This document shows positions 40,145 through 64,000 of a stretch of DNA of 64,000 nucleotides, one piece after another (the first letter of the stretch is position 1; each line of letters starts with the position of its first letter). Position numbers and translations under genes: made by a program. The notes beneath the pieces were generated by a model, which had not been told where the DNA came from, searched no databases, and saw only the letters and a list, made by a program, of their open reading frames with translations. Source of the DNA: Acidobacteriota bacterium. GTDB lineage: Bacteria > Acidobacteriota > CAIWXX01. The stretch covers positions 32,001 to 96,000 of the forward strand of contig JBFMAF010000023.1 of assembly GCA_040755995.1 (NCBI GenBank), read 5' to 3'.

Positions 40145-40338
40145 AGGTGACGTACGATCCGGAAGTGGATGTGCTTCGCATCGTCCTGAGCAACAGGCCG
40201 ATCGAGGAGAGCGATGAGGAGAAACCCGGGATCATCCTCGACTACGACAAGGACGGGAATGCCGTTGGGTTGGAAGTGCTGGACGCTTAAAAGCGTATGG
40301 AGAATCCCCGATCGGTAGAGTACGCTGTGACCGCCTGA
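40141..40338 (+). pseudogene. DUF2283 family antitoxin-like protein with premature stop
   Basis: MKVTYDPEVDVLRI...IILDYDKDGNAVGLEVLDA*KRMENP...; TAA at 40288 (likely from TCA); ATGA overlap with the upstream gene. Confidence 0.75.
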
Positions 40339-43128: not shown

Positions 43129-43998
43129 CTAAGGGCCGAGTCGCTGCGGGCGCGCGGTCGTGTCGATCTTCGTGTAGTCGAGCTCGCTGCCCAGGACGCT
43201 GTGCGGGATCACGAACACCGCCAACGTCAGGACGGCCGCGGCAAGAGAGAGCCAGCGCCCGGTCTTGCTCACGTCCCTCCGACGTACGCCCAGTGCCAGA
43301 CACGCCGAGAGCCACAGCAGGAATGCGACGAGGGTCTTGTTGTCGGTGAGATCCCAGCCGTACGGCACGCCGGTCCACCAGGCGCCGAAGGCCTGGTACT
43401 GGACGAGCGGGCCGAGGAGCATGCCGCCAAGAGAGATGAGTCCGAGCGTCCACCAGGCGAGCGGCCGGAGGCCCGGGCGGTTCAGGAGGGCAACGATTCC
43501 GGCGTGGGTCGAGCATAGCATCGCGAGGAATATGAAGACGACATGTGGAACCAGCGCCCACCGGCTCACATGCCCTTTGAACCGGATCACCACGTAGCGG
43601 TCCTCCGGGACATTCACCGTCTCGCCCCCGGAGGTCAGCCTGACGTGGTACTCGAGCTTGCCGGCGGGCGGCTGGTGAGGCAGTGCGGCCGAAAGGCGAT
43701 CTCCATCCAGACGCATCGCCACCGCTTTCATTGGCTCATCCACCTTGAACCGCTTGTAGCTCAGCGTACCGGAGACGACACCTCGCGGGATTGCGATACT
43801 GACGACGGCGTCGGAATCTCCGGCGTGCGTACGAGGCAGTTTGTAACTCGATGACTGCTGGGCAATGGTGACAGATCCGCGGACTGGGCGGGCTGGTCCG
43901 GTGATTCGCTGGAATGCGGCTGTTCCGAGCGTCACGATGAACACCGCGAGCCACCACGCGGCGTTGCCGGCGCCAGCTGGTAGTCGCTTCGATCTCAT
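43129..43998 (-). CDS. Conserved hypothetical membrane protein
   Basis: N-terminal TM, soluble domain (LPHQPPAGKLEY), about 4 C-terminal TMs (WTGVPYGWDLTDNKTL). Confidence 0.75.
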   Translation of the reverse strand: MRSKRLPAGAGNAAWWLAVFIVTLGTAAFQRITGPARPVRGSVTIAQQSSSYKLPRTHAGDSDAVVSIAIPRGVVSGTLSYKRFKVDEPMKAVAMRLDGDRLSAALPHQPPAGKLEYHVRLTSGGETVNVPEDRYVVIRFKGHVSRWALVPHVVFIFLAMLCSTHAGIVALLNRPGLRPLAWWTLGLISLGGMLLGPLVQYQAFGAWWTGVPYGWDLTDNKTLVAFLLWLSACLALGVRRRDVSKTGRWLSLAAAVLTLAVFVIPHSVLGSELDYTKIDTTARPQRLGP

Positions 43999-44070
43999 AG
44001 GCTGCGCATTCCGTCCCGATGCACAAGGCGTGAATCTTACCGACCAGACGTGCGGATGGCAAGCGGGGAT

Positions 44071-44205
44071 GTGAAGAGGTGAGACGTTAGAGGATAGACG
44101 GAAGACGTGCGCTGCTGCCACGTCGGACGTCAGACGGGAGACGTTAGACGGAAGAAGTGCGTTGTTGCCACCTTTGGCACCTGCTCTTTCGTGTTCCGTC
44201 TAACG
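44071..44205 (+). repeat. Heptamer-palindrome element R1 (double)
   Basis: AGACGnn arm, core GACGTGCGCTGCTGCCAC, then a second degenerate unit. Confidence 0.8.
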
Positions 44206-44297
44206 TAGGACGAGCTGGATTGACAGGCGGTCTTCGAGTCAAGGTGGCAGGCTATAGAGAGGGTGCAACCACCTGATTCGCGGCCACGGGCCGCCAT

Positions 44298-44642
44298 TCA
44301 GGCGGACTTCCCCAGAGTACGAAGCCGGGCCACGAGATCGCGAACATCTTCAACCGCCTGCTGGAGTGTATATCCCGACGGAATCGCAGCCCCGTCAATC
44401 AGATCCATCATCTCCCAAAGAGAGACCCCGGCGATTTTGGCCGCGCGCGACTTGCTGGCCCTGCCTTCATGATAGAGGCGCAATGCCAGTGCCTTCTTCT
44501 TCCGATCAATCCCATCCTGCAGAATCTGCCGCGCTACATCTACACGCGAAGCGTGTTCCTCTCCAGCAAGAATATCCAGGTCCGAAGCAGCCTCGTTCGG
44601 AAGACGGATGTTGAGTTGAACGGGCTTCGAGCTACTCATCAT
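44298..44642 (-). CDS. UPF0175-family antitoxin-like protein
   Basis: N-terminal RHH-like LNIRLP, C-terminal ALRLYHEGRASKSRAAKIAGVSLWEMM. Confidence 0.75.
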   Translation of the reverse strand: MMSSSKPVQLNIRLPNEAASDLDILAGEEHASRVDVARQILQDGIDRKKKALALRLYHEGRASKSRAAKIAGVSLWEMMDLIDGAAIPSGYTLQQAVEDVRDLVARLRTLGKSA

Positions 44643-44651
44643 GAACCTCCT

Positions 44652-45185
44652 CTACTGAGCCCGGAGGCGTCGAATCTCACCTGCCGCAGCTCGTAAGACT
44701 GTGATCACAGCTTCGTCCGTATGCATCGCCCTTCCGATCCGAAGAAGCATGTCATCACACTCCTCAAAACTCACCTGCCCGCCGATCAACCCGTGCAGGG
44801 GCAGCACCTGCAGGATCATGTATTCGACACCGTGAGCAAGTGCGATGTTCCTGCCACGCTGCTCTTCCATCACCAGGACGATGCGGCGCTCCTTGGCGCA
44901 GGCAATGGTCTGGCAGTCCGTGGCACTAAGTGCGGGGGCGCTGCGCCTGATCGACACTGCCATGTGTTTCTCGGCATCGGTCAAAGTGATGACGACGAGA
45001 TCCTTGTCCCGAATGGCATCTTCGATTCGCAAGGCATCGCGATAGCCACGGGCCTTGCCCTGGACCACTGTCTCCGCCTCCACCCCGGGAATCAACGCCA
45101 TCGCGCCGAACAGGCGCTTCAGCAACCAGAGCGCGTCGATTCGTGAAAGCACGATCAGGCTGGAGGCGTCGGCTATGGCTTTCAT
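44652..45185 (-). CDS. PIN-domain protein (DUF3368-like)
   Basis: AIADASSLIVL, LSATDCQTIACA, VLVMEEQRGR; upstream TGaTACAAT and RBS ggag. Confidence 0.75.
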   Translation of the reverse strand: MKAIADASSLIVLSRIDALWLLKRLFGAMALIPGVEAETVVQGKARGYRDALRIEDAIRDKDLVVITLTDAEKHMAVSIRRSAPALSATDCQTIACAKERRIVLVMEEQRGRNIALAHGVEYMILQVLPLHGLIGGQVSFEECDDMLLRIGRAMHTDEAVITVLRAAAGEIRRLRAQ

Positions 45186-45255
45186 GATCTCCTGCTACAA
45201 ATTGTATCACCTGGCAGGGTTTCGTCAATACGGGAGGTGTGCATGTCACACGCGC

Positions 45256-45382
45256 CGGCCGCCTGGAAATGATGAAGCTTATGGCGCGGTTCCAGGACTT
45301 CTTCCGTAGAATGCGGAGGCGTGGCTGGAGAGGTTCGACTACAAGGAGGCGGGGCCGCAGCTGTTGCTGCAGGCTTTCTTGC
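45256..45382 (+). pseudogene. Remnant of AAA-ATPase/nuclease (internal part)
   Basis: Near copy of ~55824-55950 (GRL.MMKLM..FQDFFR...WLERFDYKEAGPQLLLQAFL). Confidence 0.85.
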
Positions 45383-45450
45383 GTCCTCCTCCAGCCGGGT
45401 CCTTCAGGACCACGGATGCCGCCGGGGCCGTTGGATCGTAGTTGACCCCG

Positions 45451-45666
45451 TCACAGGCGTGCATCGGATGAATCCTCGATGATCTCCATGCGGAAGTCGC
45501 AGGCTTCCTCGGGGTGAGCCAAGCGCGGGCTCGGAACGTGAGCGATCTGTTCCACGTGAACTTCAGGGACGACCACAAAGACCCTGGTGTGCTCGGGCAA
45601 CAGCACGTTGCCGTCGACCCTGACCCTTCCTTCCTCAACGACGCCTTCGTATGTCGCCACTCTCAT
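45451..45666 (-). CDS. Small AF2212/DUF104-like putative antitoxin
   Basis: TYEGVVEEGRVR....LPEHTRVFVVVP; the overlapping downstream partner (MHACDGVNYDP...) is truncated. Confidence 0.6.
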   Translation of the reverse strand: MRVATYEGVVEEGRVRVDGNVLLPEHTRVFVVVPEVHVEQIAHVPSPRLAHPEEACDFRMEIIEDSSDARL

Positions 45667-45797
45667 ATACGAACCTCCCCGCCTCTCAAGATCATAGACC
45701 AGGAGCAGGCGGCAGACAAGATCGGCTGGGAAGACGGGCGTCTATGGTGCAGAGACAGCCATGCGAGTCGCTCATCCCGACCTTGTCCTGCAAGGAG

Positions 45798-45922
45798 CAG
45801 GGTGGTGAACGACACCGGGCGGATCGGGCGGGAGAGACATGTTAGACGAGAGACGTTAGGCGGAAGACGTGCGCTGCTGCCACCTCGGGCGCCCGGCTCT
45901 TTCGTCTTTCGTCTCCCGTCTT
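45798..45922 (+). repeat. ATPase remnant (RVVN..GRIGRE) plus heptamer-palindrome element R2
   Basis: AGACG arm, GACGTGCGCTGCTGCCACCTCGGGCG core, CGTCT arm containing the MazF stop. Confidence 0.85.
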
Positions 45923-46274
45923 ACAGCGGCAACAAGCCGACGGCAATTCTGATCCCGTCTTCCAGCTGCCTGAGCAGGTCTTGGTTCAAGGTGCCGAGGC
46001 ATTGCGAGAGCTTCGCCCGGTCGAGTGTCGTGGTCTGGTGGCATAGCGCCACGCTCTCCTGGCGGAGCCCACCGGCAGCCTTTGGCAGACCGACCACTGT
46101 GGGGCCCCGCTGTCCCTGTGCGGGGGAGGTAGAGACAGGCACGACGATGATCGATCTCCATCCGGGCGTCGTGTTGAATCCGTCGTGGGACACAACGATG
46201 ACCGGTCGCGTGCCTCTCTGCTCCGAGCCCGAGCGCGGTTTCAGGTGGGCGACCCAGACCTCGCCGCGCTTCAT
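45921..46274 (-). CDS. MazF/PemK family toxin
   Basis: MKRGEVW..L.P..GSEQ.G.RPVIVVS...N...IIVVP.ST. Confidence 0.9.
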   Translation of the reverse strand: MKRGEVWVAHLKPRSGSEQRGTRPVIVVSHDGFNTTPGWRSIIVVPVSTSPAQGQRGPTVVGLPKAAGGLRQESVALCHQTTTLDRAKLSQCLGTLNQDLLRQLEDGIRIAVGLLPL

Positions 46275-46525
46275 CTGGCCTTATCCTCCGAGAGGAGGTG
46301 CTCGACGGAGGACGCCTCCAAGCTCGCATCCAGGTCCGTGTCGGTACCCGCGAACTTCCTGGCGTAGGCCGTGATGGAATCGTGAATGGCCGCCTTCTTC
46401 CTCTCGGCCAGCCATCTCTCGATTGCCCGCCTGACGAGCACGGTTATCGGTTCGCCCTCGCGTTTGGACTCCACGCTGAGTTGGAAGTAGACGTCGTCGG
46501 GAACGGGAACGTGACAGTTGCGCAT
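46271..46525 (-). CDS. Cognate antitoxin (RHH-like)
   Basis: Overlaps the toxin start; upstream inverted repeats TGCCAT-N6-ATGGCA (46538-46555). Confidence 0.75.
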   Translation of the reverse strand: MRNCHVPVPDDVYFQLSVESKREGEPITVLVRRAIERWLAERKKAAIHDSITAYARKFAGTDTDLDASLEASSVEHLLSEDKAR

Positions 46526-46601
46526 GATAGCCCCCTGTGCCATAGGTCCATGGCAGATATTGTGCCACATCATAAGCCATCATTCAAGGCTGATCGGCTC
46601 A

Positions 46602-47411
46602 TCAGGATGCCAAGCCGCCGAGCGTGGTGGCCCCGGAATGGCCATGGCTGCGGCGATGGAGGCCACGCGATGGCGACCTGTTGCGTTTCTGGACGGAGAC
46701 GGCGTTTGGCTCCCAGGCAAGTTGTGGCTCCAGCTCGACTCGATTCTGGTGATAGTAGGGCTGCTCGCCCTTCAGCCCGTCGTACGATTTAATGCCCACA
46801 GCCAGCTCGCCAGGGAGCGCCGCGTCTTCCTCAAGGTCCAGACAGAGCACAACCCCCGGCTCGACTTCCCTGTAGCGAAATCCGCTCTCCGGGCAAACCA
46901 TGATCCCGTCCTCGCCAGGCCTGCTTAGCCGATGGCCGTGACGGCTCTTCCAGCCTTGCTGGCGCGCCGGCACTCCGACCATGAGCGCGTAGTCCGGCAC
47001 GTCCTTCGCGACGACAGCTCCGGCTCCGACGAAGGCATAGCGGCCGATCGTGATCCCGCAGACGACGGTGGCATTGGCTCCAATGGAACAGCCGCGCCTG
47101 AGCAGGGTTCGCTCGTACAGGCTGTGGCGGACCACCTGTGACCGCGGGTTGGTGACGTTGGTCAGGACGCAGGAGGGGCCGAGGAACGCGTCGTCCTCGA
47201 TGATCGAGCCCGTGTAGATCGAGACATTGTTCTGCACCTTCACATTGTTCCCGATGACCACATCACTGCCCACATAGCAGTTCTGCCCGAAGATGCAGTT
47301 CCTGCCGATCTTCACGCTCTTCATGATGTGGCAGAAATGCCAGATATTCGTCCCCTCGCCGATCTCGCACGGCTCGTCCACGTATGCGGATTCGTGTTTG
47401 AAATACGGCAT
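46602..47411 (-). CDS. WbpD/WlbB-like N-acetyltransferase (hexapeptide repeat)
   Basis: HESAYVD...IGEGTNIWHF, KVQNNVSIY, FLGPSCVLTNV.NPRS, IGANAT; 3' end may run on past the natural stop. Confidence 0.88.
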   Translation of the reverse strand: MPYFKHESAYVDEPCEIGEGTNIWHFCHIMKSVKIGRNCIFGQNCYVGSDVVIGNNVKVQNNVSIYTGSIIEDDAFLGPSCVLTNVTNPRSQVVRHSLYERTLLRRGCSIGANATVVCGITIGRYAFVGAGAVVAKDVPDYALMVGVPARQQGWKSRHGHRLSRPGEDGIMVCPESGFRYREVEPGVVLCLDLEEDAALPGELAVGIKSYDGLKGEQPYYHQNRVELEPQLAWEPNAVSVQKRNRSPSRGLHRRSHGHSGATTLGGLAS

Positions 47412-47425
47412 GATGCGGGCTCCTC

Positions 47426-48095
47426 TCACTCCCGGCCAGTCACCCATGGCCTATCGATGAATGGGTGCGGGCAGTCGGGCGCCTCGATGACTCGCGCAGT
47501 GCGTATCTGGTGCACCAGTTCAATCGACGGCCGGGCATCCTTGATCCCAAAGCCGTCGCCGGCCAGGGTTCTCTCGTAGACGCGTGTGTGCAGGTCGGTG
47601 AATCCCTCGGTGAACTCGACCTCCTGCCCGTCCACCGTGATCGACCGGTACGTACTGCGCTGCCCCGGCTGCACTGAGAATGGCAGGTCACCGGTCTCGA
47701 GTGAAAGAAACCATCGGACGTTGGCTCGGGCGAGCTCGATGAACCCGGCCATGCGCCGGCGTTCGGTCAGGTGTACCTCAGAGCGTTGCATCGAGCCGAA
47801 AAGCCACATCAGCAGATCGAAGAAATGGATGCCTATGTTCGTGGCGATGCCGCCTGATCGGTCTTCCTGGCCCTTCCACGACACGTCGTACCACCGGCCT
47901 CGGCTAGTGACGTACGTCAGGACTACCTCGCGTCGCGCCGTCCCGGTCTCGCTGTCGAATCGACGTTTCAGCTCCACGAGAGCCGGGTGCAACCGCAGCT
48001 GCAGCAGGGTGTAGACGCGCCGGCCCGACTCGGTCTCGATCTGCTCGAGCGCGTCGAGGTTCCACGGGTTGATCACCAGCGGCTTCTCGCAGTGC
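47426..48095 (-). pseudogene. WbpB/WlbA-like Gfo/Idh/MocA oxidoreductase, 5'-truncated and fused in frame to DUF5615
   Basis: CEKPLVINPWNLD, LQLRLHP, RGRWY..SWKG...SGGIATNIGIHFFD, EFTEGFTDLHT; NAD-binding N-terminus missing. Confidence 0.85.
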
Positions 48096-48340
48096 ACGCC
48101 CTCCTGGTCTGGCCTGAGAAGGAGCACCCCTGCGTGGCTGCCGGGCGGGTGAGCGCGCGCATCGGCCAACCCCTTGTCTGCAGTCACAAGGAATCGCCGC
48201 TCCGACTGGACCCCTTCCCATAGCTGAGCATCCTTCCATCCGCCCATCTTCTCATCAACGACGCGCTCAGCCTGGTGGCCGCGGTCGCAGATCAACTGGG
48301 CCACCGCCCTCGGCAGGTCCTCGTCCACCTTGATGCGCAC
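48096..48340 (-). pseudogene. DUF5615 PIN-like toxin, C-terminally truncated
   Basis: MRIKVDEDLP...L...GH...D...E.RFLVTADK...HAGVLLLR. Confidence 0.75.
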
Positions 48341-48350
48341 GCTTCCGCAG

Positions 48351-48590
48351 TCAGGATGGGAGGGGCATCAGAACTTCCTGATGCACCACTTCCGCGGCAT
48401 ATGCCAGTGCAGCCTGGATGTCCTCGACGGAGAGCTGAGGATATGCAACGAGAATAGCCCCCGCGTTCATTCCATCCGCCAAGCTACCGAGGATGATGGA
48501 CACGGGAATCCTCGTTCCCTTGATGCACGGATCGCCGTGGTGCAATTCCGGATCAATCACCACCCTGCCAGTCCAGCGGGTTCGGTTCAT
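48351..48590 (-). CDS. DUF433 antitoxin
   Basis: DPELHHGDPCIKGTRIPV..IL..LA.G....IL..YP.L..EDI.AAL.YA. Confidence 0.92.
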   Translation of the reverse strand: MNRTRWTGRVVIDPELHHGDPCIKGTRIPVSIILGSLADGMNAGAILVAYPQLSVEDIQAALAYAAEVVHQEVLMPLPS

Positions 48591-48781
48591 GCGTGTCTCC
48601 GTATATACCTCCGGGGTCCCGACCTACGTCCAGATTATACCCCCTTGCAGACCAGTAGCAACAGCCAGCTCGCCGAGAGGCCGAGAAGCCCCGAGAGGAT
48701 GTGCATGAGGGTATCAGGGCGGTGCTCAACGAGTGCGGGTCTCGCGCCAGGGCTTACCTGGGCGACGACGGTCTCGAGCGA

Positions 48782-48973
48782 GGGTCACCTCGTCATCTTC
48801 GACCGCGATCCGAAGAAGAGCTGGGATGCGAAGGTGTTCCAGCGGACGGGGACGTTCGAGGGGAAGACGATTCGGGTGTGGGGAATGTGAAGAGGTGAGA
48901 CTTTAGACGGAAGACGTGAGCTGCTACTCGTTCGCGCGCCTTCCTCCTCCGTCTTCGGTCTCCCGTCTTCCGT
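48782..48973 (+). repeat. ATPase 3' remnant plus element R3
   Basis: GHLVIFDRDPKKSWDAKVFQR...VWGM* followed by AGACG arm, core and CGTCT arm. Confidence 0.88.
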
Positions 48974-48989
48974 GTTCTGTCCGACCCCT

Positions 48990-49530
<541 letters not shown>

Positions 49531-49703
49531 TCACATCTTCTGACTCTCCTGTGAACACAGTATACCATCCGGCAGCCGTCTCCGTATCCACACGCGGTGC
49601 TCGACATTCGGCCGCTGGGTGCGGTTTCTTGGTCACGACGCACATGAAGATGCTCAGAGCCATGCGGCGCCAAGCCCTGGGGTTGAAGGTAAAGGGGGGG
49701 CCG

Positions 49704-49826
49704 CGAGAACGGTCTCGGGCGTGGCCGCGCCGACCTGCTGGTGATCTGGCGGCATCCGGGCGGCGTGCAGAAGACGGTAGTCGAGCTCAAGAGACGTCAG
49801 ACGGAAGAAGTGCGTGAGCTGCTGCT
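49704..49826 (+). repeat. ATPase remnant (GLGRGRADLLVIWRHPGGVQK.VVELK) plus half element R4
   Basis: Near copy of ~55985-56072, then gagacgtcagacggaag...gtgagctgctg. Confidence 0.8.
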
Positions 49827-50321
49827 GACTCTGTACTTTCCATCACATTGGGATCTGGAACGCATCCACGATCGGGGGGCGGATGGAAATCCGGGAGTTG
49901 GTTCTCGAAATGAAGCAATTCGAGCGCAGACTGACCAAGACGGCGTCCTGCCGTTTTCACGCCGCCTGCAACATCAGCTCCCGGAGCCCTGGGATGCCCC
50001 AAAGAGCGTTCGGATCTCCGCCCGAAGACCGTCCACCAGCGGCTCGTTCCAGCCGCTCCGGGCGTCGGCGACCACGTGGCGATCGAGTTCCGAAAGGTCC
50101 CGCAGCGAGCCGAACTTCGACGAACTTGTCAGCCATCACGGCGGGGCCCCAGGTCGAACTTGACACGGCGCCGCCGCTCATCACCCTTCTCCACGAGCGC
50201 GTCGTGGGGCACGTTCTGGATGACGTTCCAGGGCCTACAGAGCCGCCCGCTGGTACGCCACCTGCGACGAGGTCCGAGCAGGACCTTGCTGTCGGGCCGC
50301 ACAAGCCGCTCGAGTCTGCTC

Positions 50322-50422
50322 CTGGGACGCGAAGGTGTTCCAGCGGACGGAGACGTAGGAGGACAAGACGATCCAGGCGTGGGGGATGCGAGACGAGAGA
50401 CGTGAGCTGCTGCCGGCTCGCG
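50322..50422 (+). repeat. ATPase 3' remnant plus half element R5
   Basis: tgggacgcgaaggtgttccagcggacggagacg...gggggatgcga, then gacgagagacgtgagctgctg. Confidence 0.8.
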
Positions 50423-50432
50423 TGCCGTCGGA

Positions 50433-50855
50433 TCACGGAACCACAGGGAATCCCAGGGCCGCCGCGTTGGTCCTCACGCGTGCGTCCAGGCTCAGCACCG
50501 ACAGACCCGGCACGGCGGCGCGAGCCACCAGGGCCGAGACCAGATGGAGCGCGTCCAGAGTCCGAACGGGCTCTTCCGGGAAGGGCTTGCGAGCGCGGTC
50601 CAGGATCGCACTGTCCAGGCCGATGATGGTCCAGCCGGGCACGACGGACGCCAATACCGACCGGCAGTCTGCCGCATCGACTTCCGACATGATCCTCGTC
50701 GCGACAAGTCGCACGAAAACGCGCTCCGCCTCCACTACAGTCAGCGCAGATGTAGTCACCAGGTCGGCATGGGCCAGGACGTTTCGGACGCGCGCGCCGG
50801 CGGGCTCGCCGAGAACCCATGCCAGGAGCGCCGATGTCTCCAGATAAAGAGTCAC
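50433..50855 (-). CDS. VapC-like PIN toxin
   Basis: LYLETSALL...E, SALTVVE, VRTLDALHLVSAL, LSLD; GTGA overlap with the antitoxin stop. Confidence 0.85.
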   Translation of the reverse strand: MTLYLETSALLAWVLGEPAGARVRNVLAHADLVTTSALTVVEAERVFVRLVATRIMSEVDAADCRSVLASVVPGWTIIGLDSAILDRARKPFPEEPVRTLDALHLVSALVARAAVPGLSVLSLDARVRTNAAALGFPVVP

Positions 50856-51145
50856 CGTTCCCCTCGGCTGTCGTCCAGCGCCGCTATCGCGGTGCCGGGA
50901 GGGACCCGCGGCCGCCGGGGCCGGTACTTGGAAGGGTCGTGGTCGGCCCCGAGCACCACAGCCCCCTGCCTTGCCAGCAGCACCAATCCAGGATATGACG
51001 CCGCCTTCGTCGCCGGGAGTCCCGGCCTCCTCAACTCCGCAACGACCTCCCCACGATCCGTTACCAAGATCTCCTCGCCACCCTTGACCAGGCGGAGGTA
51101 CTCGCTGAAACGGCTCTTGATCTCCCGGATGCCCACGGCCTTCAT
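50852..51145 (-). CDS. Phd/YefM antitoxin
   Basis: VGIREIKSRFSEYLRLVKGGEEILVTDRGEVVA. Confidence 0.9.
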   Translation of the reverse strand: MKAVGIREIKSRFSEYLRLVKGGEEILVTDRGEVVAELRRPGLPATKAASYPGLVLLARQGAVVLGADHDPSKYRPRRPRVPPGTAIAALDDSRGER

Positions 51146-51166
51146 GGTCGGTCCTCCTGCGTGAAT

Positions 51167-51195
51167 AATGTAGTCTCAACAGACCATATTGTCAA
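51167..51195 (-). promoter_or_regulatory. Sigma70-type promoter of the phd-vapC operon
   Basis: TTGACA-17 nt-TACATT on the minus strand, followed by RBS aggagg. Confidence 0.75.
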
Positions 51196-51201
51196 ATCGC
51201 G

Positions 51202-51306
51202 AGTGAAGAGGTCAGATGTTAGACGATAGACGGAAGGCGTGAGCTGCCGCGAGCTCCCGCGTCTCCCGTCTTTCGTCTTCCGTCTCCCGTCTTCCGTGCA
51301 TCGTCT
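51202..51306 (+). repeat. Element R6
   Basis: gtgaagagg..gttagacgatagacggaag arm, core, four CGTCT units. Confidence 0.85.
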
Positions 51307-51356
51307 GCCTGAGCGTCCGTCGGTGCATCACGAGCTCGGCGTGCTATAATCGAGAG

Positions 51357-52949
51357 ATGGTGCGATTCTTCAACACTGAGGGGCCAGTGGACAGCCGAAA
51401 GCACTACTGCCTGCCTCCTCTGTCCCGCTTGGATCTTCCCGACGTGCTCTCGCTGATCGAACGCGAGAAGTACTTCGTCCTTCACGCCCCGCGGCAGACG
51501 GGCAAGACGACGTGCCTGCTCGCCTTGATGGAGTACCTCAACCGCGAAGGGCGCTACCGGTGTCTTTATGTCAACTTCGAGGTCGGCCAGTCCGCACGGG
51601 AGGACGTGCGGCGGGGCATCCGTGCGATCATCGGTGAGATCGGCTCACGAGCGAAGCACCAGTTAGAAGATCCCATCCCTCTGGGGATGATCGGCCCGGT
51701 CCTGGATGAATACGGCGAGGACGGCGCGCTCAACGCGCTGCTGACGCAGTGGGCCGAAGCGAGCCCCCGTCCGCTGGTGCTTCTCGTGGATGAGATCGAC
51801 TCGCTGGTCGGTGACACGCTCATAGCGGTCCTCCGGCAGCTTCGTGCCGGCTATGACAAACGCCCGCGGCTGTTCCCGCAGAGTGTCGTGCTGTGCGGTG
51901 TGCGCGACGTGAAGGACTACCCGATTCACTCTGACCGCGAGAAGACGGTGATCACCGGTGGGAGCGCCTTCAACATCAAGGCGGAGTCGCTCCGGCTGGG
52001 CGATTTCAGCCGAGAGGACGTGACGGTGTTGTACCGGCAGCACACCGAGGAGGCCGGACAGATCTTCGAGGACTCGGCAGTGGAGATGGTGTGGGAGCTG
52101 ACTTGCGGTCAGCCATGGCTGGTCAACGCGCTCGGGTACCAGGCATGCTTCAGAGCGGTGGAGGGGCGCACCCGTTCAAAGCCGGTGGATGCGGAGATGA
52201 TCGCCGATGCCAAGGAGAGCCTGATCCTGCGGCGCGTGACACACCTTCACCAGCTCGCCGACAAGCTCAGAGAGGATCGGGTGAGGCGTGTGGTCGAGCC
52301 GATGTTGCGGGGGGGCGACTTCGACCGGCCGCCCACGGCCGATGACCTCGAGTACGTGATCGATCTCGGGTTGGTCCGCCGGGGTCCGGCCGGCCCGGTG
52401 ATCAGCAACCCGATCTACCGCGAGGTGATCCCGCGCGAGCTCACGCAGATCGTACAGTCTAACATCGAGAGCATAGTCACGCCTCTCTGGTACGTCAGCC
52501 CCGACGGCCGCCTGGACATGATGAAGCTCATGGCGGGGTTCCAGGAGTTTTTCCGCGAGAACTCGGAGGCGTGGCTGGAGAGGTTCGACTACAAGGAGGC
52601 GGTGCCGCAGCTACTGCTGCAGGCTTACTTGCAGAGAGTGGTGAACAGTGCTGGGCGGATCGGGCGAGAGTACGGTCTGGGGCGTGGCCGCGCGGATCTG
52701 CTGGTGATGTGGCGGCATCCGGGCGGGGTGCAGAAGGCGGTAGTCGAGCTCAAGATCCTGCGCAAGTCGCTGGAGCGCACGATAGTCGAAGGACTTCGGC
52801 AGACGGCCGAGTACATGGACCGCTGCGGCGTCTCGATCGACGGTCACCTCGTAATCTTCGACCGCGACCCTGCGAAGAGCTGGGACGCGAAGGTGTTCCA
52901 GCGGGCGGAGACGTTCGGGGGGGAGACGATTCAGGTGTGGGGTATGTGA
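51357..52949 (+). CDS. AAA-like ATPase with C-terminal PD-(D/E)XK-like nuclease domain (copy 1)
   Basis: HAPRQTGKTT (Walker A), LLVDEID (Walker B), GQPWLVNAL; C-terminal REYGLGRGRADLLV...VVELK. Confidence 0.88.
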   Translation: MVRFFNTEGPVDSRKHYCLPPLSRLDLPDVLSLIEREKYFVLHAPRQTGKTTCLLALMEYLNREGRYRCLYVNFEVGQSAREDVRRGIRAIIGEIGSRAKHQLEDPIPLGMIGPVLDEYGEDGALNALLTQWAEASPRPLVLLVDEIDSLVGDTLIAVLRQLRAGYDKRPRLFPQSVVLCGVRDVKDYPIHSDREKTVITGGSAFNIKAESLRLGDFSREDVTVLYRQHTEEAGQIFEDSAVEMVWELTCGQPWLVNALGYQACFRAVEGRTRSKPVDAEMIADAKESLILRRVTHLHQLADKLREDRVRRVVEPMLRGGDFDRPPTADDLEYVIDLGLVRRGPAGPVISNPIYREVIPRELTQIVQSNIESIVTPLWYVSPDGRLDMMKLMAGFQEFFRENSEAWLERFDYKEAVPQLLLQAYLQRVVNSAGRIGREYGLGRGRADLLVMWRHPGGVQKAVVELKILRKSLERTIVEGLRQTAEYMDRCGVSIDGHLVIFDRDPAKSWDAKVFQRAETFGGETIQVWGM

Positions 52950-53041
52950 AGAGGTGAGACGTTAGACGATAGACGGAAGACGTGCGCTGCTCCCACCTCG
53001 GGCGTCTCTTCTTTCGTCTGCCGTCTCACGTCTTTCGTCTA
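52946..53041 (+). repeat. Element R7
   Basis: Begins within the ATPase stop codon; full left arm, core and right arm. Confidence 0.88.
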
Positions 53042-53044
53042 CCG

Positions 53045-53585
53045 GCACTCGCCAGGGCTGCAGCGCTCAGTGCCGCCCCGGGGAAGATACGTTGCGTTTC
53101 TCGACGGAGACGACGTGTGACTCCCGGAGAAAACCAAGCTTCAGCTCCAATTCATGGCCGATCGCACCGCGCCCTTCTGCGCGACGAGCTACCGCCGCAT
53201 GACAGAGGGAGGCGAGAAGGCAGGCCGATTGATCCGAGTGCCAGAGAGGATCCGATATGGAGATCTCCTTAAGAACACCTCGATCGCGGCATCGACGGTC
53301 ATGATCGACAGAGCGGTCACCGGGCCCATCCAGACGATCAGCACGTTCCACGACGATTTCGTCCTCTGGCTGAGTCTGCTCAAAAGGGGCCTCGACGGTC
53401 ATGGCCTGAACGAGGACCTCATGCGCCATCGTGTGGTCGCCGGGTCGTACTCGCGCAACAAGCCCATGATGGCCTATCACGTCTGGCGAACGTACAGGGG
53501 GGCGGAACGCCTGGGGTTCGCGTACTCCTGCTGGTAATTCTTGAACTACGCATGGAACGGCTTAAGGAAGTACCGGGCGTTCTGA
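53045..53585 (+). pseudogene. Glycosyltransferase family 2 (TuaG-like) pseudogene
   Basis: RYVAFLDGDDV*LPEK...DDFVLWLSLLK...SRNK...W*FLNYA; 5' missing, stops and frameshift. A related fragment lies at ~46640-46740. Confidence 0.75.
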
Positions 53586-53849
53586 CAGTTCACGGGGTTG
53601 GAGCCGCTCTATCGGATCTCGGCTTTCTGGTGATGCCGCGGAGGAGGTCCAGCAGGCGGAGTCCGCGGTAGGCGATGGCGGCAGGGAGCCAATCTCTCAC
53701 CCGATCGAGCAGCGGAAGCGCGAGTCTCCACTGCACCTGAATCCTGTTGTGTCCCTGGTGCCGGTAGGGTGGGAAGCGAAGGAGATCCAGGTGGCGCTCC
53801 AACCACCGCCTTCTGAGGCGACTGGGTGCGATTGTCTCCAGGACTGACT

Positions 53850-54005
53850 GTGAAGATGTGAGACGTTAGACGATAGACGGAAGACGTGAACTGCTGCCGC
53901 CCGGGGCGCCCACCCTTTTCGTCTTCCGTCTCACGTCTTTCGTCTACCGTTGGACGTGAGCTGCTACTGGCTCGCGCGCCCTCCTCTTCCGTCTCCCGTC
54001 TACGC
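53850..54005 (+). repeat. Element R8 (double)
   Basis: Two cores (gacgtgaactgctg, gacgtgagctgcta) with arms. Confidence 0.85.
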
Positions 54006-54119
54006 GTCAGCTCGGGTGTGCGGGTCTGGTGGGCGAGCTGCATTGACGGGCGATCATCGGCGATGCCGAAGCCACCCCCGGCCAGGGTTGGTTCGTACAC
54101 GCGTGTGTGCAGGTCAGCC

Positions 54120-54550
54120 CGGTGAGCCCTTTGAGCCCTTTCCGTGGTATCACGTAGAAGGTGCCCCTTCCCGTTCTACCTACCTTCAGCAGCACCCGCT
54201 TGGAAACGAGTTCGTCGAGGTCGCGCGTCGCAGTCGGTTTGGAGACACCGAACGCCTCTTGATAGGCCTTGTTGTCAAGGCGCCGTCTCTGCTTCAGCAG
54301 CGCCACCGCCCTCCGCTGGCGATCGTTCAACCCGAGTCTCTCCACTACCGCCTCAGTCAGCCAATCGCGCCACAACGTTACTACGAGCCCTCCGCCGCGC
54401 TGGTCGAAGTCCGGCTCCGGCAGTCCGCGCTCAGTGCACTGCCGGATCATCATCAGGGTTCCAGTGCCGAACTTCTCGATGTAGCGCGCCAGAAAGAGCG
54501 CTTCGCATATCCTCGCATTGCGCGCGACCGAGGCATGCGGCTCGCGCAGG
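54120..54550 (-). pseudogene. C-terminal fragment of HATPase_c_4/HTH (RecG-C-like) regulator
   Basis: PHASVARN..I...L....YIEKFGTG, GLPEPDF, LNDRQ, VSKPTATRDL. Confidence 0.7.
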
Positions 54551-54577
54551 CGGGCGGGCGTACCGCAGCCACCTGGG

Positions 54578-54628
54578 GCGTCTCCCGTCTCTCATGTTTT
54601 CCGTCTCCCGTCTCCCGTCTCGCCTCTA
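54578..54628 (+). repeat. Element R9 (right arm only)
   Basis: cgtctcccgtct...ccgtctcccgtctcccgtct. Confidence 0.7.
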
Positions 54629-54674
54629 AACCTCTAAACGGTGCATCACGAGTCCGGCGTGCTATAATCTCGAA

Positions 54675-56267
54675 ATGGCGCGATTCTTCAACACTGAAGG
54701 GCCCGTAGATGCACGGAAGCACTACTGCCTGCCTGCTCTGTCCCGCCTCGATCTTCCCGACGTGCTCTCGCTGATCGAACGCGAGAAGTACTTCGTCCTT
54801 CACGCCCCGCGGCAGACGGGCAAGACGACATGCATGCTCGCCTTGATGGAGTACCTCAACCGCGAAGGGCGCTATCGTTGCCTCTACGCGAACTTCGAGG
54901 TGGCACAGTCTGCGCGCGAGGACGTGCGCCGGGGCATCCGTGCCATCCTCGGTGAGATTGGCTCGCGAGCGAGGCACACCTTAGGCGATCCCATCCCTCT
55001 GGACGCGATGGGCCCCCTTCTAGACCAATACGGCGAAGATGCTGCGCTCAACGCGTTGTTGACGCAGTGGGCCGAAACCGGCCCCCGCCCGCTGGTGCTT
55101 CTGGTGGACGAGATCGACTCCCTGGTCGGCGACACCCTGATCGCGGTCCTCCGGCAGCTTCGTGCCGGCTACGACAAACGTCCGCGGCTGTTTCCGCAGA
55201 GCGTCGTCCTGTGCGGTGTTCGCGACGTCAAGGAGTACCGCATTCACTCGGACCGCGAAAAGGCAGTCATCACAGGGGGGAGCGCTTTCAACATCAAGGC
55301 CAAGTCGCTGCGCCTTGGGGACTTCAGCCAGGAAGAGATGACAGCGCTCTATCGGCAGCACGCCGAGGAGACGGGGCAGGTGTTCGAGGGTGAGGCAATC
55401 GAGGTTGCCTGGGAACTGACCCGCGGCCAGCCGTGGCTGGTGAACGCCCTCGCTTACGAGGCCTGCTTCGAGATGCCGGGAACTCAAGACCGGTCGAGCC
55501 CCATCACCGGGGCGACGATAGAGGAGGCGAAAGAGCGACTGATCTTGTACCGGGTGACTCACCTCGACCAGCTCGCGGACAAGCTGAGGGAGGATCGCGT
55601 GAGGCGTGTGGTCGAGCCGATGTTGCGGGGGGGCGACTTCGACCGGCCGCCTACCGCTGATGACCTGGAGTATGCGATCGACCTGGGATTGGTACGCCGG
55701 GGTCCGGCCGGCCCGGAGATCAGCAACCCGATTTACCGCGAGGTGATCCCGCGCGAGCTGACGCAGATCGTACAGTCCAACATCGAGAGCATAGTCACGC
55801 CTCTCTGGTACGTCACCGCGGACGGCCGCCTGGACATGATGAAGCTCATGGCGGGGTTCCAGGATTTTTTCCGGGAAAACTCGGAGGCGTGGCTGGAGAG
55901 GTTCGACTACAAGGAGGCGGGGCCGCAGCTACTGCTGCAGGCGTTCTTGCAGAGAGTGGTGAACAGTTCTGGGCGGATCGGGCGAGAGTACGGTCTGGGG
56001 CGTGGCCGCGCGGATCTGCTGGTGATGTGGCGGCATCCGGGCGGGGTGCAGAAGGCGGTAGTCGAGCTCAAGATCCTGCGCAAGTCGCTGAAGCGCACGA
56101 TAGCCGAAGGAGTTCGGCAGACGGCCGAGTACATGGACCGCTGCGGCGTCTCGATCGACGGTCACCTCGTAATCTTCGACCGCGACCCTGCGAAGAGCTG
56201 GGACGCGAAGGTGTTCCAGCGGACGGAGACGTTCGAGGGCAAGACGATTCAGGTGTGGGGAATGTAG
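54675..56267 (+). CDS. AAA-like ATPase with C-terminal PD-(D/E)XK-like nuclease domain (copy 2)
   Basis: 530-aa paralog of 51357-52949. Confidence 0.88.
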   Translation: MARFFNTEGPVDARKHYCLPALSRLDLPDVLSLIEREKYFVLHAPRQTGKTTCMLALMEYLNREGRYRCLYANFEVAQSAREDVRRGIRAILGEIGSRARHTLGDPIPLDAMGPLLDQYGEDAALNALLTQWAETGPRPLVLLVDEIDSLVGDTLIAVLRQLRAGYDKRPRLFPQSVVLCGVRDVKEYRIHSDREKAVITGGSAFNIKAKSLRLGDFSQEEMTALYRQHAEETGQVFEGEAIEVAWELTRGQPWLVNALAYEACFEMPGTQDRSSPITGATIEEAKERLILYRVTHLDQLADKLREDRVRRVVEPMLRGGDFDRPPTADDLEYAIDLGLVRRGPAGPEISNPIYREVIPRELTQIVQSNIESIVTPLWYVTADGRLDMMKLMAGFQDFFRENSEAWLERFDYKEAGPQLLLQAFLQRVVNSSGRIGREYGLGRGRADLLVMWRHPGGVQKAVVELKILRKSLKRTIAEGVRQTAEYMDRCGVSIDGHLVIFDRDPAKSWDAKVFQRTETFEGKTIQVWGM

Positions 56268-56347
56268 GACGGAAGACGATAGACGTTAGACGTGCGCTGC
56301 TACTACCTCGCGCGCCCTCGTCTTCCGTCTCCCGTCTATCGTCTTAC
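56268..56347 (+). repeat. Element R10
   Basis: Between the ATPase stop and the convergent AAA gene; the latter's reading frame ends inside the right arm. Confidence 0.85.
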
Positions 56348-58099
56348 GTGTTCCGCGTGGCACTCCTCGCGGTGCACCAGCTCCCACCCGTGGAAGACGG
56401 CAAGCAGTTTGCGGAGCTTCGTCGCACCGGGTGTAGCCTGCACGAACGGGTCCTGCGCATATTTCGAGAGCTGCTCGGTCGCCTCTCCGATCTTCGCCTC
56501 GAGCAGCTGCCCGTTGAGCTCGCCGCGCCTGAGGTACTTCAGCTCCAACAAGTACGAGTGCCCGATTTCCGGGTATTTGGCTAGGAACGGCTGGAAGTAG
56601 ATGTCGGCGAAGCCCTTGTTCATTTCCACCTCGGAGCGCGTGATGTATATGTCGGTGATGTTGAGCTAGGCGAGGAGGAATGTGCGCAATGCGGTCTCGC
56701 CCTGGATGTAGTCGCGGATGGAAGTCTGTTCGCTCAACGCATTGGCGAGGTAGTCGAGCACGGGTTCCCACTCGCCGGCGAAGGCCATCCGGGAGATCAG
56801 CCTTCCGTACTCGCCGACATCCATCCTGAAGATGTCGACGTCCTCGTAGCCTTCGCGGAGGTACTCGTAGAATAGCGAGCGCACGGTGAGATTGGGAATC
56901 CTCAGGACGGTCTGTCCCCTTTCTCTCCGGCCGATTGTGAGGAGGCCCAGGTAGTATAGCAGCGAGAGGAAGACGTCCGGGTTCAGGAGGCGCTCTGCGG
57001 GGAAGGCCTGCTGGAGTGTGGTGGCGATTTCCTCGCCCTCTGCGATCTCTTTCAGCCGTGAGAAGCTCCCGTTGAGGCGACGGTCGATCATCACCAGGTG
57101 CCGGAGCTTCTCGTAGTCAGTCTTGACGTTGGGATCCACGAGATCCAGAGGCAGCGACCCCGTTCTTACGGCTGTGCCCACGGCATACAGTACCATGTCG
57201 CTGTTGTACACCGTCTGTGCGCCCACAGGGGAGAAGCGGTAGTTCCCGTACCACTCATGCAGCAGTGGCGGGCGATCACCCGTGTCCTCCTTCAGCAACC
57301 CTGCCATGCCATAGTACTCCAGCAGGGTGTCGGTCTCACCCTCTGTGAAGCCGAGCATGCCCGAGAGATCGCCGTCAAGGGTGACGTTCGTGCCGATGTT
57401 GAATCCGCTGGTCACATCATCCATCGTCACCGGCGAGACGCCGGTGATGAAAAGCCTTGCAACGCTAGCGCCTGAGCCTGTCGTTCCCGCCTTCAGGACG
57501 TTGAAGAAGTGCCGGAAGAACCCATGTCCGTGCGTCAGATCGCGGTAGGAGTTCTCACCATAGCTCGAGAGGATCGTGTTGGCGAAGTTGTCGTACTCGT
57601 CGATCAGGACATACAGTCTCTGTCCCGCCTCCTTCACCCTCCTGATGACGTGGGATACCCTTTCGGAGGACCGGCCGGCCGTCTGCAGCTCGTCGAGGGA
57701 GCCCTCCGGCAGAACTGTCGTGTATCTGTTTCGGAAGTACTCGGTCTGTTCCCTGACATGGAACTCGAAGGATTCCTCGACATGGCGGACATCGGGGTTG
57801 ACGCCCGAGAAGTTGAAGCTCAGGATCAGGTAGGTGTTGTGCTCATCGGTCGGATGGTCGTGAATTGAGGTGCCTGAGAAGATCGAGTCGAAATCGTCCG
57901 TGCGTGCCAGGTCGTACTAGCAGTCGAGCACCGACAGCCAGAGCGACTTGCCGAAGCGGCGCGGGCGAAGGAAGAGAAGGTACTTCCCGGCCTGCTCCAG
58001 CAACGGGATGTACCGAGTCTTGTCGACGTAGTAGTAGTTTTCCCGCCGCATGGCGAGGAAGTCCGATATCCCGTACGGTATACGTTTCGGGCTGTTCAT
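56336..58099 (-). pseudogene. AAA-ATPase-like + PD-(D/E)XK nuclease (PF09820/PF08011-type) with two in-frame TAG stops
   Basis: IPYGISDF, YYVDKT, RPRRFGKSL, LIDEYD, FITGV, GFADI...LLELKY in one frame; TAG at 57917-57919 and 56666-56668. Confidence 0.85.
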
Positions 58100-58139
58100 G
58101 CCTCTATTCTACACGCAGCCGATGCAACAAGGAATGCCA

Positions 58140-58331
58140 CGTGACGCATCTCGACCAGCTCGCCGACAAGCTCAAGGAGGACCGCGAAGGTGTTCCAGCG
58201 GGCGGAGACATTCGAGGGCAAGACGATTCAGGTGTGGGGAATGTAAGACGTCAGACAAGAGACGTTTGACGTAAGACGTGAGCTGCTACTACCTCGCGCG
58301 CCTTCGTCTCCCGTCTTCCGTCTCCCGTCTT
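58140..58331 (+). repeat. Internally deleted ATPase remnant plus element R11
   Basis: VTHLDQLADKLKEDR joined to AKVFQR...VWGM*, then arm, core, arm. Confidence 0.85.
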
Positions 58332-58850
58332 TGATCTCCTGCGCGTCGGCGGTGATCGAGCGGTGCGTGCTACGCTCGCCGGGCCGCGCTGTGTAAGGCA
58401 GATCGCTGGTCTCGAGCGACAAGAGCCATCGGACCTCCGCGCCGGCGAGCTCCACGAACCCGCCCATGCGCCGCCGCTCGCGCAGGTGCACCTCGGAACG
58501 CTGCATCGGACCGAAGAGCCAGATAAGCAGATCGAAGAAGTGGATACCGATGTTGGTGGCTATGCCGCCCGAGCGTTCCTCGATCCCCTTCCACGACATG
58601 TCGTACCATCGCCCGCGGCTTGTGACATATGTGAGCACGACCTGGCGTCGGGTGCTGCGCGTCTCGGCGTCGAGTTTCTGCTTGAGCTCGATGAGCGCGG
58701 GATGGACGCGGAGTTGCAGCACCGTGTAGACGCGCCGGCCCGACTCGGGTTCGATCTGCTCGATCGCATCCAGGTTCCACGGGTTGATGACGAGTGGCTT
58801 CTCGCAGAGCGCGTGTGCGCCGTTGCGCAGCGCCATGCGCCCTATCGATT
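58332..58850 (-). pseudogene. Second WbpB/WlbA-like oxidoreductase fragment, truncated at both ends
   Basis: MALRNGAHALCEKPLVINPWNLD...RSITADAQEI, cut at element R11. Confidence 0.85.
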
Positions 58851-59008
58851 TGCATGTCGCAGGGGCAGTTCGACCGGGCGTGGGGGTGAGGGAGGCGTGA
58901 GGGATCGACTTGGCTACAGGGGGGCTGAGGGCAGGTAGGATCTTCGGCGTGGGCGTGAAGCGGGATGCGGGGGATAGTGGAGGGGTTTGAGGTGGAAGTC
59001 CGAACGGC

Positions 59009-60181
59009 TCAGGTTCGCAGACGATCGAGCCGGCGGCAGGCCTCCTCGAGGTCGGCGTCCTCTTTGGCGTAGCAGAAGCGGAGCAGGTTCTCGCCGGCAC
59101 CGTCGTGGTAGAAGGCCTCCCCAGGGACGCTGGCGACGCCCGTCTCTTCCAACAGGAACATGGCCTTCTGCTTGCTGGTGCGCCCTGGGAGATACGATGC
59201 ATCAGCGAGGATGTAATACGCCCCTTGCGGAAGCGGGAACTGAAATCCCGCGTGATGCAACGCATCGCTGATACGCATTCGCTTCCGGTCGAAGGCCCGC
59301 TGGAGCTCAGCATAATAATCGGGAGAGACCCCCGCTATGCCCGCTGCCACACCCGCCTGCAGGGGGGCGGGTGCACAGATATAGATCAGATCGTTGACGT
59401 GCCCGATCCGCTCGGCCCAGCGCGCGGAGCAGACGCAGTAGCCGACGCGCCAACCCGTGATGCTGTAGGTCTTCGAGTAGCCCGAGATCGTGATCGTGCG
59501 TTCAGCGATCTCGGGAAGCGCGCCTGGGCTGATGTGGCTTCGCCCATCGTACACGAAGTACTCGTATATCTCGTCTGTGAGCACGAACAGGTCATGCTTT
59601 AGGGCGGTATCGGCAATCCCGCGCAGTTCTTCCTGCGTGTACACCTTGCCCGTGGGATTGCCGGGCGTATTGAGGAGGATCGCCTTCGTGCGCGGCCCGA
59701 CGGCTCGCTCCAGGTCTTCGAGTGAGTAGTCCCAGTCAGGTGGTCGCATTGAGACGAATCTTGGCACTGCATCCACGGCGAGCAGAGTGCTGAGGTGATA
59801 TCCGTAGTATGGCTCGAACAGGATAACCTCATCGCCCGGGTCGAGAAGGGCCATACACGCGCAGTAGAGCGCCCCAGTGGACCCGGCGCTCACGACGACT
59901 TCAGTTTCGGGATCTGCTGTGATGCCGTTGTATTCGAGCATCTTCCGTGCGATGGCCTCTCGAAGTACCGCCAGCCCGTCGTGTCTCGTGTAGGAGTTGA
60001 CTCCCTGCTTCATCGCTTGCCACGCCCCGTCAATAACCGGTTCAGGCACGGCCATGTCGCAGACGCCTTGGGCGAGATTGACGCCTCCAACCTTCGCGCA
60101 CTCGACCGTCATCGTCCGGATCTCCGCCTTCGCGATGCATTCCGATCGGCCGCTGAGCGAGAGTTTCGGTGCCGACATCAA
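59009..60181 (-). CDS. PLP-dependent aminotransferase class I/II
   Basis: NLAQG, NTPGNPTGK, DEIYE, SKTYSITGWRVGY. Confidence 0.93.
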   Translation of the reverse strand: MMSAPKLSLSGRSECIAKAEIRTMTVECAKVGGVNLAQGVCDMAVPEPVIDGAWQAMKQGVNSYTRHDGLAVLREAIARKMLEYNGITADPETEVVVSAGSTGALYCACMALLDPGDEVILFEPYYGYHLSTLLAVDAVPRFVSMRPPDWDYSLEDLERAVGPRTKAILLNTPGNPTGKVYTQEELRGIADTALKHDLFVLTDEIYEYFVYDGRSHISPGALPEIAERTITISGYSKTYSITGWRVGYCVCSARWAERIGHVNDLIYICAPAPLQAGVAAGIAGVSPDYYAELQRAFDRKRMRISDALHHAGFQFPLPQGAYYILADASYLPGRTSKQKAMFLLEETGVASVPGEAFYHDGAGENLLRFCYAKEDADLEEACRRLDRLRT

Positions 60182-63294: not shown

Positions 63295-63347
63295 CTTCGG
63301 GACCCTCTGCCGAGTAACCGACTACCGGTGCTTCTTCTCTCGCTTCG

Positions 63348-63980: not shown

Positions 63981-64000
63981 CAGGCGATGCCTCCTCGTGG

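Follow-up and report, generated by a model that had tools for sequence, protein, structure and literature searches.

The window analysed here is a 64,000-nt stretch of the genome of an Acidobacteriota bacterium, positions 32001-96000 of contig C23 of genome G000 (7.7 Mb in 56 contigs; C numbers denote contigs of this genome, and positions without a contig number are those of the window). Between 44065 and 58860 it carries an array in which short hairpin elements, with arms of 7-nt AGACG-type repeats, stand among toxin-antitoxin genes and intact or broken copies of a gene for an AAA+ ATPase with a nuclease-like C-terminal domain (the ATPase-nuclease). The array occupies part of a 339-kb contig, where a polysaccharide locus on the minus strand that extends to about C23:128 kb has its downstream end. 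The edge of a surface-sugar gene cluster hosts, in other words, a heptamer-hairpin stack of toxin-antitoxin genes and broken ATPase-nuclease pieces. An earlier note on this DNA had suggested that the array may reflect integrase-independent accretion of cassettes on a platform made of the hairpin and the ATPase 3' end. The names wbpA, wbpB, wbpD, sat and Rhs are used below for genes that we take to be of these kinds.

Thirteen whole or partial copies of the hairpin element were found between 44 and 58 kb, namely 12 same-strand cores and one lone arm. The core GACGTG(A/C)GCTGC is present at 44104, about 44155 (degenerate), 45866, 48913, about 49810, 50399, 51236, 52979, 53883, 53953, 56289 and 58275, and all 12 cores lie on the plus strand, in line with the single orientation given in the earlier note. 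That note had also listed about 11 copies, each with both arms. The array itself stands, but only eight copies are two-armed; three consist of left arm and core (one of them merging into a second copy), one of core and right arm, and a right arm without a core is found at 54578. Among the listed copies, those at 49790 and 50390 have no right arm, 44071 is the start of a doublet (second, complete copy at 44126) and 54578 is the right arm alone, and a copy at 53948 is additional. The doublet (44065-44206, plus strand) is preceded by no more of the ATPase gene than its final ~10 nt. Complete plus-strand elements that do not adjoin an ATPase remnant are located at 51203-51306 (upstream of the first intact ATPase gene), 52950-53044, 53853-54005 (followed within these limits by the core and right arm at 53948) and 56268-56345. 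When a strict arm-and-core pattern was applied to the window, eight matches were observed on the plus strand and none on the minus strand, and each of 100 shuffles of the window gave none. Folding of nine elements as DNA (11 folds, two elements being folded on both strands) gave z values of -1.1 to -5.2. An Rfam scan returned no matches at E<=0.1.

Two intact copies of the ATPase-nuclease gene, as reported earlier, are located on the plus strand at 51357-52949 (copy 1) and 54675-56267 (copy 2). Each encodes 530 amino acids (aa), an AAA_22/AAA_35-like ATPase with a C-terminal PD-(D/E)XK-like domain, and the two are 87 % identical. Both proteins match Pfam AAA_22 and, weakly, PDDEXK_9, and both retain Walker A/B and D447/E464/K466, which we take to be the catalytic motifs. 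Each gene has a hairpin downstream and an arm upstream. Their Atlas neighbours are unnamed AAA_35/AAA_22 proteins from many phyla; no family was found for the protein in PADLOC or NCBIfam, and a PDB sequence search gave no matches.

Remnants of the gene lie at six further places, in addition to the ~10-nt gene end at 44065, and all are on the plus strand. The first two are consecutive parts of the gene, aa 380-426 at 45245-45382 (88 % nucleotide identity to the intact genes) and aa 427-438 at 45799-45922, the latter joined to a complete hairpin element (45835-45922). The third (48680-48975) is internally deleted, with aa 77-105 joined to aa 492-530, and is followed by a complete element. At 49699-49830, aa 436-467 are joined to a left arm and core, and at 50322-50428 the 3' remnant aa 508-530 (with an in-frame stop) is again followed by a left arm and core; neither has a right arm. 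The last (58141-58331) is also internally deleted (aa 294-309 joined to aa 510-530) and carries a complete element. The start points (aa 77, 294, 380, 427, 436 and 508) are unrelated, and the remnants, of variable length, lie beside older cargo as they do in displacement arrays. Seven elements follow the ATPase gene or a remnant, in agreement with the earlier count of at least seven. Five of the seven preceding pieces are 3' ends, two of them belonging to internally deleted genes, and the other two are internal pieces (aa 427-438 and 436-467) that end on a left arm.

The remnants are 80-97 % identical in nucleotides to the intact genes and no two copies are identical, and the likeness of copy 1 to copy 2 is patchy (60-100 identical bases per 100 nt). 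By this pattern the copies are different alleles with exchange among them, neither fresh duplicates nor a collapsed assembly. They differ as copies from different relatives do in displacement arrays, rather than as duplicates.

The cargo between these pieces lies mostly on the minus strand, and Pfam supports these families for it (UPF0175/PIN-like, MazF, BrnT, VapC/Phd, DUF433/DUF5615, AAA-PDDEXK_9 pieces and Gfo/Idh/MocA, that is wbpB-like, pieces). From left to right, a PIN-like and UPF0175 pair with a weak PADLOC PDC-S70 match (44298-45185) is followed by a 416-bp piece (45383-45798) that holds a small antitoxin-like open reading frame (ORF; 45451-45666, no Pfam match) and cut neighbours. 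This piece splits the two gene-consecutive ATPase remnants, and neither of its ends has a hairpin. MazF (PemK) and its antitoxin occupy 45921-46573. They are followed by a hexapeptide acetyltransferase gene (wbpD-like, 79 % nucleotide identity to C23:125.8k) with the 3' part of a wbpB-like oxidoreductase gene (46602-48098), and by a DUF433 and DUF5615 pair (48100-48590) in which DUF5615 is truncated and continues in frame into the wbpB piece. BrnT with a putative antitoxin (no Pfam match for the antitoxin) is found at 48990-49521, and a VapC (PIN) and Phd/YefM pair with its own promoter-like site at 50433-51145. The segment 53045-53850 carries genes on both strands, a cut plus-strand piece that looks glycosyltransferase-like by eye (no Pfam match) and a minus-strand piece 47 % identical to a gene at C23:228.8k. 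At 54018-54623 we observed a wbpB-like 3' scrap, a piece of a cut helix-turn-helix (HTH) gene and the lone right arm (54575-54623). A broken AAA-ATPase_like/PDDEXK_9 gene (56336-58099) and a second wbpB-like 3' part that is truncated where it meets the right arm (58333-58860) complete the series.

Intact cargo consists mostly of toxin-antitoxin pairs, and much of the other cargo is truncated. The earlier description of minus-strand cargo ending at or near the right arm holds in part. Only MazF (45921) and the AAA-PDDEXK_9 gene (56336) stop inside an arm, the cargo is not uniformly convergent (the element at 52946 precedes the plus-strand glycosyltransferase-like piece), and the units are not all intact, since wbpB pieces are truncated at arms, DUF5615 and the HTH piece are truncated as well, and the AAA-PDDEXK_9 gene is broken.

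The second wbpB-like part has its matching 5' half at C23:119835-120188. The two halves belong to different alleles (a 50-nt overlap at 78 % identity) and stand around a 29-kb arm-free block, and an intact wbpB was not found. The split of wbpB by this block indicates a large insertion inside the gene, away from hairpins. The end of the block within the window (59009-64000, minus strand) encodes aminotransferases, dehydrogenase E1 subunits and a sugar transferase. Three separate wbpB-like fragments (window 48098 and 58813-58860; C23:119850) end or begin within ~65 nt of a CEKPLV motif, which may be a hot spot or reflect shared ancestry.

When the joints between parts were listed by eye (26 joints, some of them defined by a cut element), 12 lay within 10 nt of a hairpin, and 2 were expected, as hairpins make up 7.9 % of the region. 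By this count, joints cluster at hairpins. The remaining 14 lie away from any hairpin and interrupt genes at unrelated positions, so that the word cassette implies too much precision.

The element is not confined to the array. Genome-wide, the 14 strongest paired elements fall mainly at either end of the polysaccharide locus (12 of them, one being a pairing, over 683 nt, of arms that belong to two elements); the other two are lone complete copies between ordinary genes (C24:75165 and C37:266318). Arms of at least three AGACG units number 50 on 13 contigs, 30 of them on C23 (control words, 1-13), and single arms follow ordinary genes. The sister cluster at the other end of the locus (C23:119800-127950, hairpins at 120.2-127.9 kb) comprises one intact Rpn gene, three Rpn C-terminal remnants and BrnT/BrnA, and most of its cores face opposite to those of the array. 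Fragments of four-helix-bundle genes (PF05635) are fused to AGACG arms there at C23:120.2k and 121.6k, one of them cut at AVS codons, which contain the arm word. An AGACG arm is also found downstream of the intact PF05635 gene at C35:27626. PF13366 was not found in the genome.

A second heptamer family, with GCGGAAT arms and its own core, has 14 copies at C32:363229-393145. Its cores share one orientation, and its hairpins separate a PIN pair, a MazF pair, Uma2, DUF433, an intact four-helix-bundle gene, cheR, cheB and response regulators almost gene by gene. No match to the 530-aa ATPase was found in this cluster, which is a cleaner test case than the present array. Two other four-helix-bundle genes are accompanied by repeats of different words, with GGTTC-type arms on both sides at C35:65936-66253 and a weak AGCTGA-type run in the flank at C12:64265-64579.

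Stacks of diverged pieces also form without heptamers. At C34:68055-91274, two full copies of sat and two 3' remnants with the terminator are 86-94 % identical and there are no heptamer arrays. Stacking thus occurs with Rpn C-termini beside the AGACG hairpin and, free of heptamer arrays, at sat, which supports the displacement reading set out below. Diverged-piece stacks are also seen at C16:1-20000 (an Rhs-like locus with repeated core ends) and at C4:21000-60000 (repeated pieces of a large glycoside phosphorylase-like gene), both named by eye.

The closest comparison genomes belong to the same family and another genus, and the arm-and-core pattern was not found in two family relatives. The strict two-arm pattern occurs in one of 400 other genomes of the phylum. 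In genome G282, from a distant family of the phylum, a long AGACG-arm hairpin with a related core follows an oxidoreductase-like ORF (L144:45-210), at 45 nt from the end of the contig. The ATPase was found in one of 40 relatives. In the family relative G002 it occurs in several copies and in fragments, in one case next to Rpn and in another next to a glycosyltransferase gene, and there are no hairpins. The left-flank gene of G002, which has no upstream array, was considered as an empty allele and rejected because G002 is another genus. A Bryobacterales genome holds four intact tandem ATPase-nuclease copies at ~2-kb spacing without heptamer hairpins (L027:2901-10637).

Runs X1 and X2, from a sister population, carry related copies of most parts of the array, joined differently from the window (15 of 37 joints were displayed; ATPase-ATPase and wbpB-wbpB joints were discounted as allele continuity). 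The joint 45700-52231 (window positions) is present in both. Others bring the element or ATPase end to the aminotransferase end (48845-59016, 50388-59017 and 59035-58253), delete the ATPase gene into the core (52363-52987) or place an arm next to the HTH piece (53034-54161 and 54325-58246). Several ATPase copies are present in this population, some with elements, and the summed depth of X1 over part of the ATPase 3' region is ~10 times that of one contig. Three loose-end flanks from these runs were absent from the window, which is what the search covered. Cargo order, which the earlier note had wished to see compared among relatives, therefore differs in the sister population, and these joints suggest variable order, short of proof. 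In X1 and X2 alike, one contig joins other cargo to the ATPase gene at about aa 292 (window 52231-52236), and aa 294 is where the remnant at 58141 begins; the cut point is either inherited from a common ancestor or recurrent.

We consider it probable that the locus is a displacement array formed by repeated homology-anchored, illegitimate acquisition of sister-lineage DNA and worn down by deletion, the hairpins acting as portable homology and as likely joining points. An ATPase gene would first have come to lie between two heptamer-arm hairpins, of the kind that is also seen in contact with four-helix-bundle genes of this genome. Incoming DNA of a relative could then pair through the ATPase gene, the ~90-bp hairpin or both, and its far end would join illegitimately, often inside the resident ATPase gene, with the remnant, its hairpin and the old cargo displaced outward. 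Short-homology deletions, many of them ending on the repetitive arms or core, would erode the older units, and self-selecting toxin-antitoxin pairs would tend to survive intact. The sequences themselves show the divergence of the copies, the varying cut points, the split gene and the differing orders; uptake from sister lineages, anchoring via the ATPase gene or the hairpin, deletions that often end on arms, and toxin-antitoxin retention are all likely. The ATPase gene would serve as anchor and passenger, host recombination functions would probably be the enzymes, and a dedicated recombinase would be unneeded.

Arrays of this kind are described for the immunity genes of the type VI secretion system (T6SS) of Vibrio cholerae and for Rhs orphans, where homology-facilitated illegitimate recombination is invoked (PMC5361080). 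As reported there, new cargo lies adjacent to a conserved anchor, older modules with cut 3' ends are pushed outward, the copies come from different relatives and no integrase takes part (PMC5361080). The right end of the present array, 54675-58860, has the same order (intact gene, hairpin, cargo, cut remnant, hairpin, older cargo). Unlike the T6SS/Rhs arrays, however, the anchor here is an accessory ATPase-nuclease with a hairpin, the order is less polar, each unit has a structured repeat, and the cargo is mostly convergent toxin-antitoxin genes and sugar-gene pieces. The locus is probably a displacement array interspersed with heptamer hairpins, in a genome in which stacks are frequent. In the literature searched, which included few subscription papers, no description of heptamer-hairpin arrays with such cargo was found.

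Several points weigh against this reading. The left half of the array (44065-51200) has no intact ATPase head, so that displacement at one end needs further deletion to account for it. The enrichment of joints at hairpins is inflated, because joints were listed by eye and cut elements themselves define some of them. Runs X1 and X2 belong to one study, and their joints come from short contigs of 80-85 % likeness in which organisms or repeats may be mixed. Finally, the uniform orientation of the 12 cores and of the C32 family is equally expected of a site-specific system.

Such a system is the first alternative. The hairpin would be the true site of an integrase-free cassette system served by a trans factor distinct from this ATPase (a four-helix-bundle protein with a host nuclease, or Rpn), and the off-site joints would be later decay. 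We regard this as possible but unlikely. Besides the common orientation of the cores, the position of the ATPase gene between two directly repeated elements or arms and the clustering of joints on hairpins speak for it, as do the single genes or operons on C32, each separated by a hairpin of another heptamer. The similarity of left arms and that of loops are uncorrelated among eight elements (28 non-independent pairs, rho -0.18), as exchange across the core would give, a pattern that suits the displacement reading as well, and the four-helix-bundle pieces fused to arms in the sister cluster would be in keeping with the proposed factor. Overexpressed Rpn is reported to promote RecA-independent recombination, although RpnA is described in the same source as nearly sequence non-specific (PMC5350276). 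Against it, no fixed crossover point is visible among the joints, more than half of which lie off the hairpin, and heptamer-free stacks exist (sat, and the ATPase pieces in G002). Like the elements of four-helix-bundle genes (PF05635, the 23S rRNA intervening-sequence protein), the array hairpins have inverted arms of tandem 7-nt units; unlike them they are gene-less, and no PF05635 remnant was found in the array.

As part of the same integrase-free reading, the hairpin families might each define an oriented cassette array (that of AGACG at either end of the polysaccharide locus, that of GCGGAAT at the signalling cluster) with a four-helix-bundle/Rpn-type trans factor, a proposal we hold to be doubtful. 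That such arrays would gain and shuffle toxin-antitoxin, nuclease and regulatory genes gene by gene is likewise a tentative suggestion. If the hairpins were true sites, they would constitute a gene-capture system without an integrase. The three oriented hairpin clusters mark changes in gene content, and the heptamer-free stacks provide an internal control, so that heptamer-hairpin recombination hot spots can be tested by strain comparison or with a reporter.

Integrons and clusters of attC sites lacking integrases (CALIN) resemble the array in having same-facing ~90-bp imperfect palindromes that separate toxin-antitoxin-rich cargo, and their attC sites follow the box consensus RYYYAAC...GTTRRRY. 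Unlike integron cassettes, the cargo here is truncated at random and carries promoters of its own, and precise single-gene cassettes are not seen. This class was rejected, as there is no IntI beside the array and there are no boxes in attC order. As the earlier note had stated, no integrase is visible at the array: the nearest tyrosine recombinases on C23 lie at 149 and 157 kb and are below the TIGR02249 cut-off, which is exceeded only at C36:325985. That gene (C36:325985-326929) is the one full-length intI of the genome and has an in-frame stop (TAA). A simple pattern scan for RYYYAAC...GTTRRRY found none in 43901-58500 on either strand, and none near the C36 intI either, which leaves the scan without a positive control; attC-like boxes in reverse order occur at 44143. 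Repeats near the C36 intI, and seven tandem insertion-sequence-like copies on C55, were examined as attC candidates and rejected as coding repeats. At C55:234671-238875, intI fragments lie among these approximately seven copies. Of the earlier proposal, then, integrase-independent accretion stands, with no neighbouring integrase and a variable order, and the ATPase-nuclease as dedicated partner or enzyme is not supported.

Alternatively, the hairpins could be passive 3'-end repeats, a terminator or mRNA-stability texture that travels with genes, and the array an ordinary decaying junkyard in which joints meet hairpins through repeat slippage. Cyanobacterial short tandemly repeated repetitive (STRR) sequences are comparable heptamer tandem repeats. 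The single AGACG arms after ordinary genes on 13 contigs, the lone complete copies on C24 and C37 and the one after the oxidoreductase-like ORF in G282 are all in keeping with this explanation. Heptamer repeats are described as over-represented in bacteria and little characterised, with GGGAATC in Xanthomonas and Nostoc heptamers as tandem repeats that form inverted pairs (PMC4692102). The Xanthomonas units are likewise intergenic and often occur as convergent pairs capable of forming a stem-loop, and the accessible text of that report gives the inverted pairs no role in gene exchange (PMC4692102). Those repeats are dispersed (PMC4692102), whereas the present ones have a conserved asymmetric core, one locus, one orientation and joints at changes of gene content. 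Passive repeats would leave the core and its common orientation unexplained, and likewise the finding that 12 of the 14 strongest paired elements sit at either end of a single locus. Terminator-like matches in the region were also not enriched (10 vs 7.4 +/- 2.5). We therefore judge this explanation improbable by a good way.

It is very improbable that accretion is driven by the ATPase-nuclease through recognition and cleavage of its own hairpin, in the manner of the Ssn nucleases and their repeats. The retained motifs of both copies, the hairpin 3' and arm 5' of both intact genes, and the several ATPase copies of the sister population, some with elements, would suit such an enzyme. To see whether gene and hairpin co-occur, as had been proposed, 107 ATPase 3' ends were scored over 170 nt downstream (ends with less than 120 nt downstream were dropped). 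Three are from the array and 104 from elsewhere, namely the genome's own paralogs, G002, 18 genome loci and 79 metagenome loci (L033 and L105 look like one sequence). A paired-arm hairpin was present at none of the 104, and a one-sided 7-periodic run of other words at four. By comparison, a repeat is reported nearby in 71 % of SsnA homologs (PMC11893778). The two same-genome paralog ends that were checked (C34 and C2) are hairpin-free, and the two other hairpin clusters are without the gene. The hairpin also clusters with Rpn, and in G002 the gene multiplies and fragments hairpin-free, and the proposal of a dedicated partner or enzyme finds no support. The Ssn (GIY-YIG) nucleases with their SRM/NTS repeats resemble the present genes in being flanked by hairpin-forming repeats (PMC11893778); they differ in nuclease fold (here AAA_22 and a weak PDDEXK_9, no GIY-YIG), and here there is no family-wide association with a repeat. 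As the homologs compared are only 39-72 % identical, a very recent, lineage-specific partnership may exist. The ATPase is likely a passenger rather than an enzyme, and knowing that its family is not a general partner of the hairpin spares a wrong lead.

Although one cargo gene is frameshifted, an assembly artefact is extremely improbable, because the 80-97 % identity of the copies argues against misassembly (repeat copies differ by 3-20 %, and all cargo units are unique), the independent runs X1 and X2 contain related pieces with element joints, and the contig is long.

Outside the array, a DUF2283 toxin-antitoxin-like small pair lies at 39876-40290 of the window and is without hairpins.

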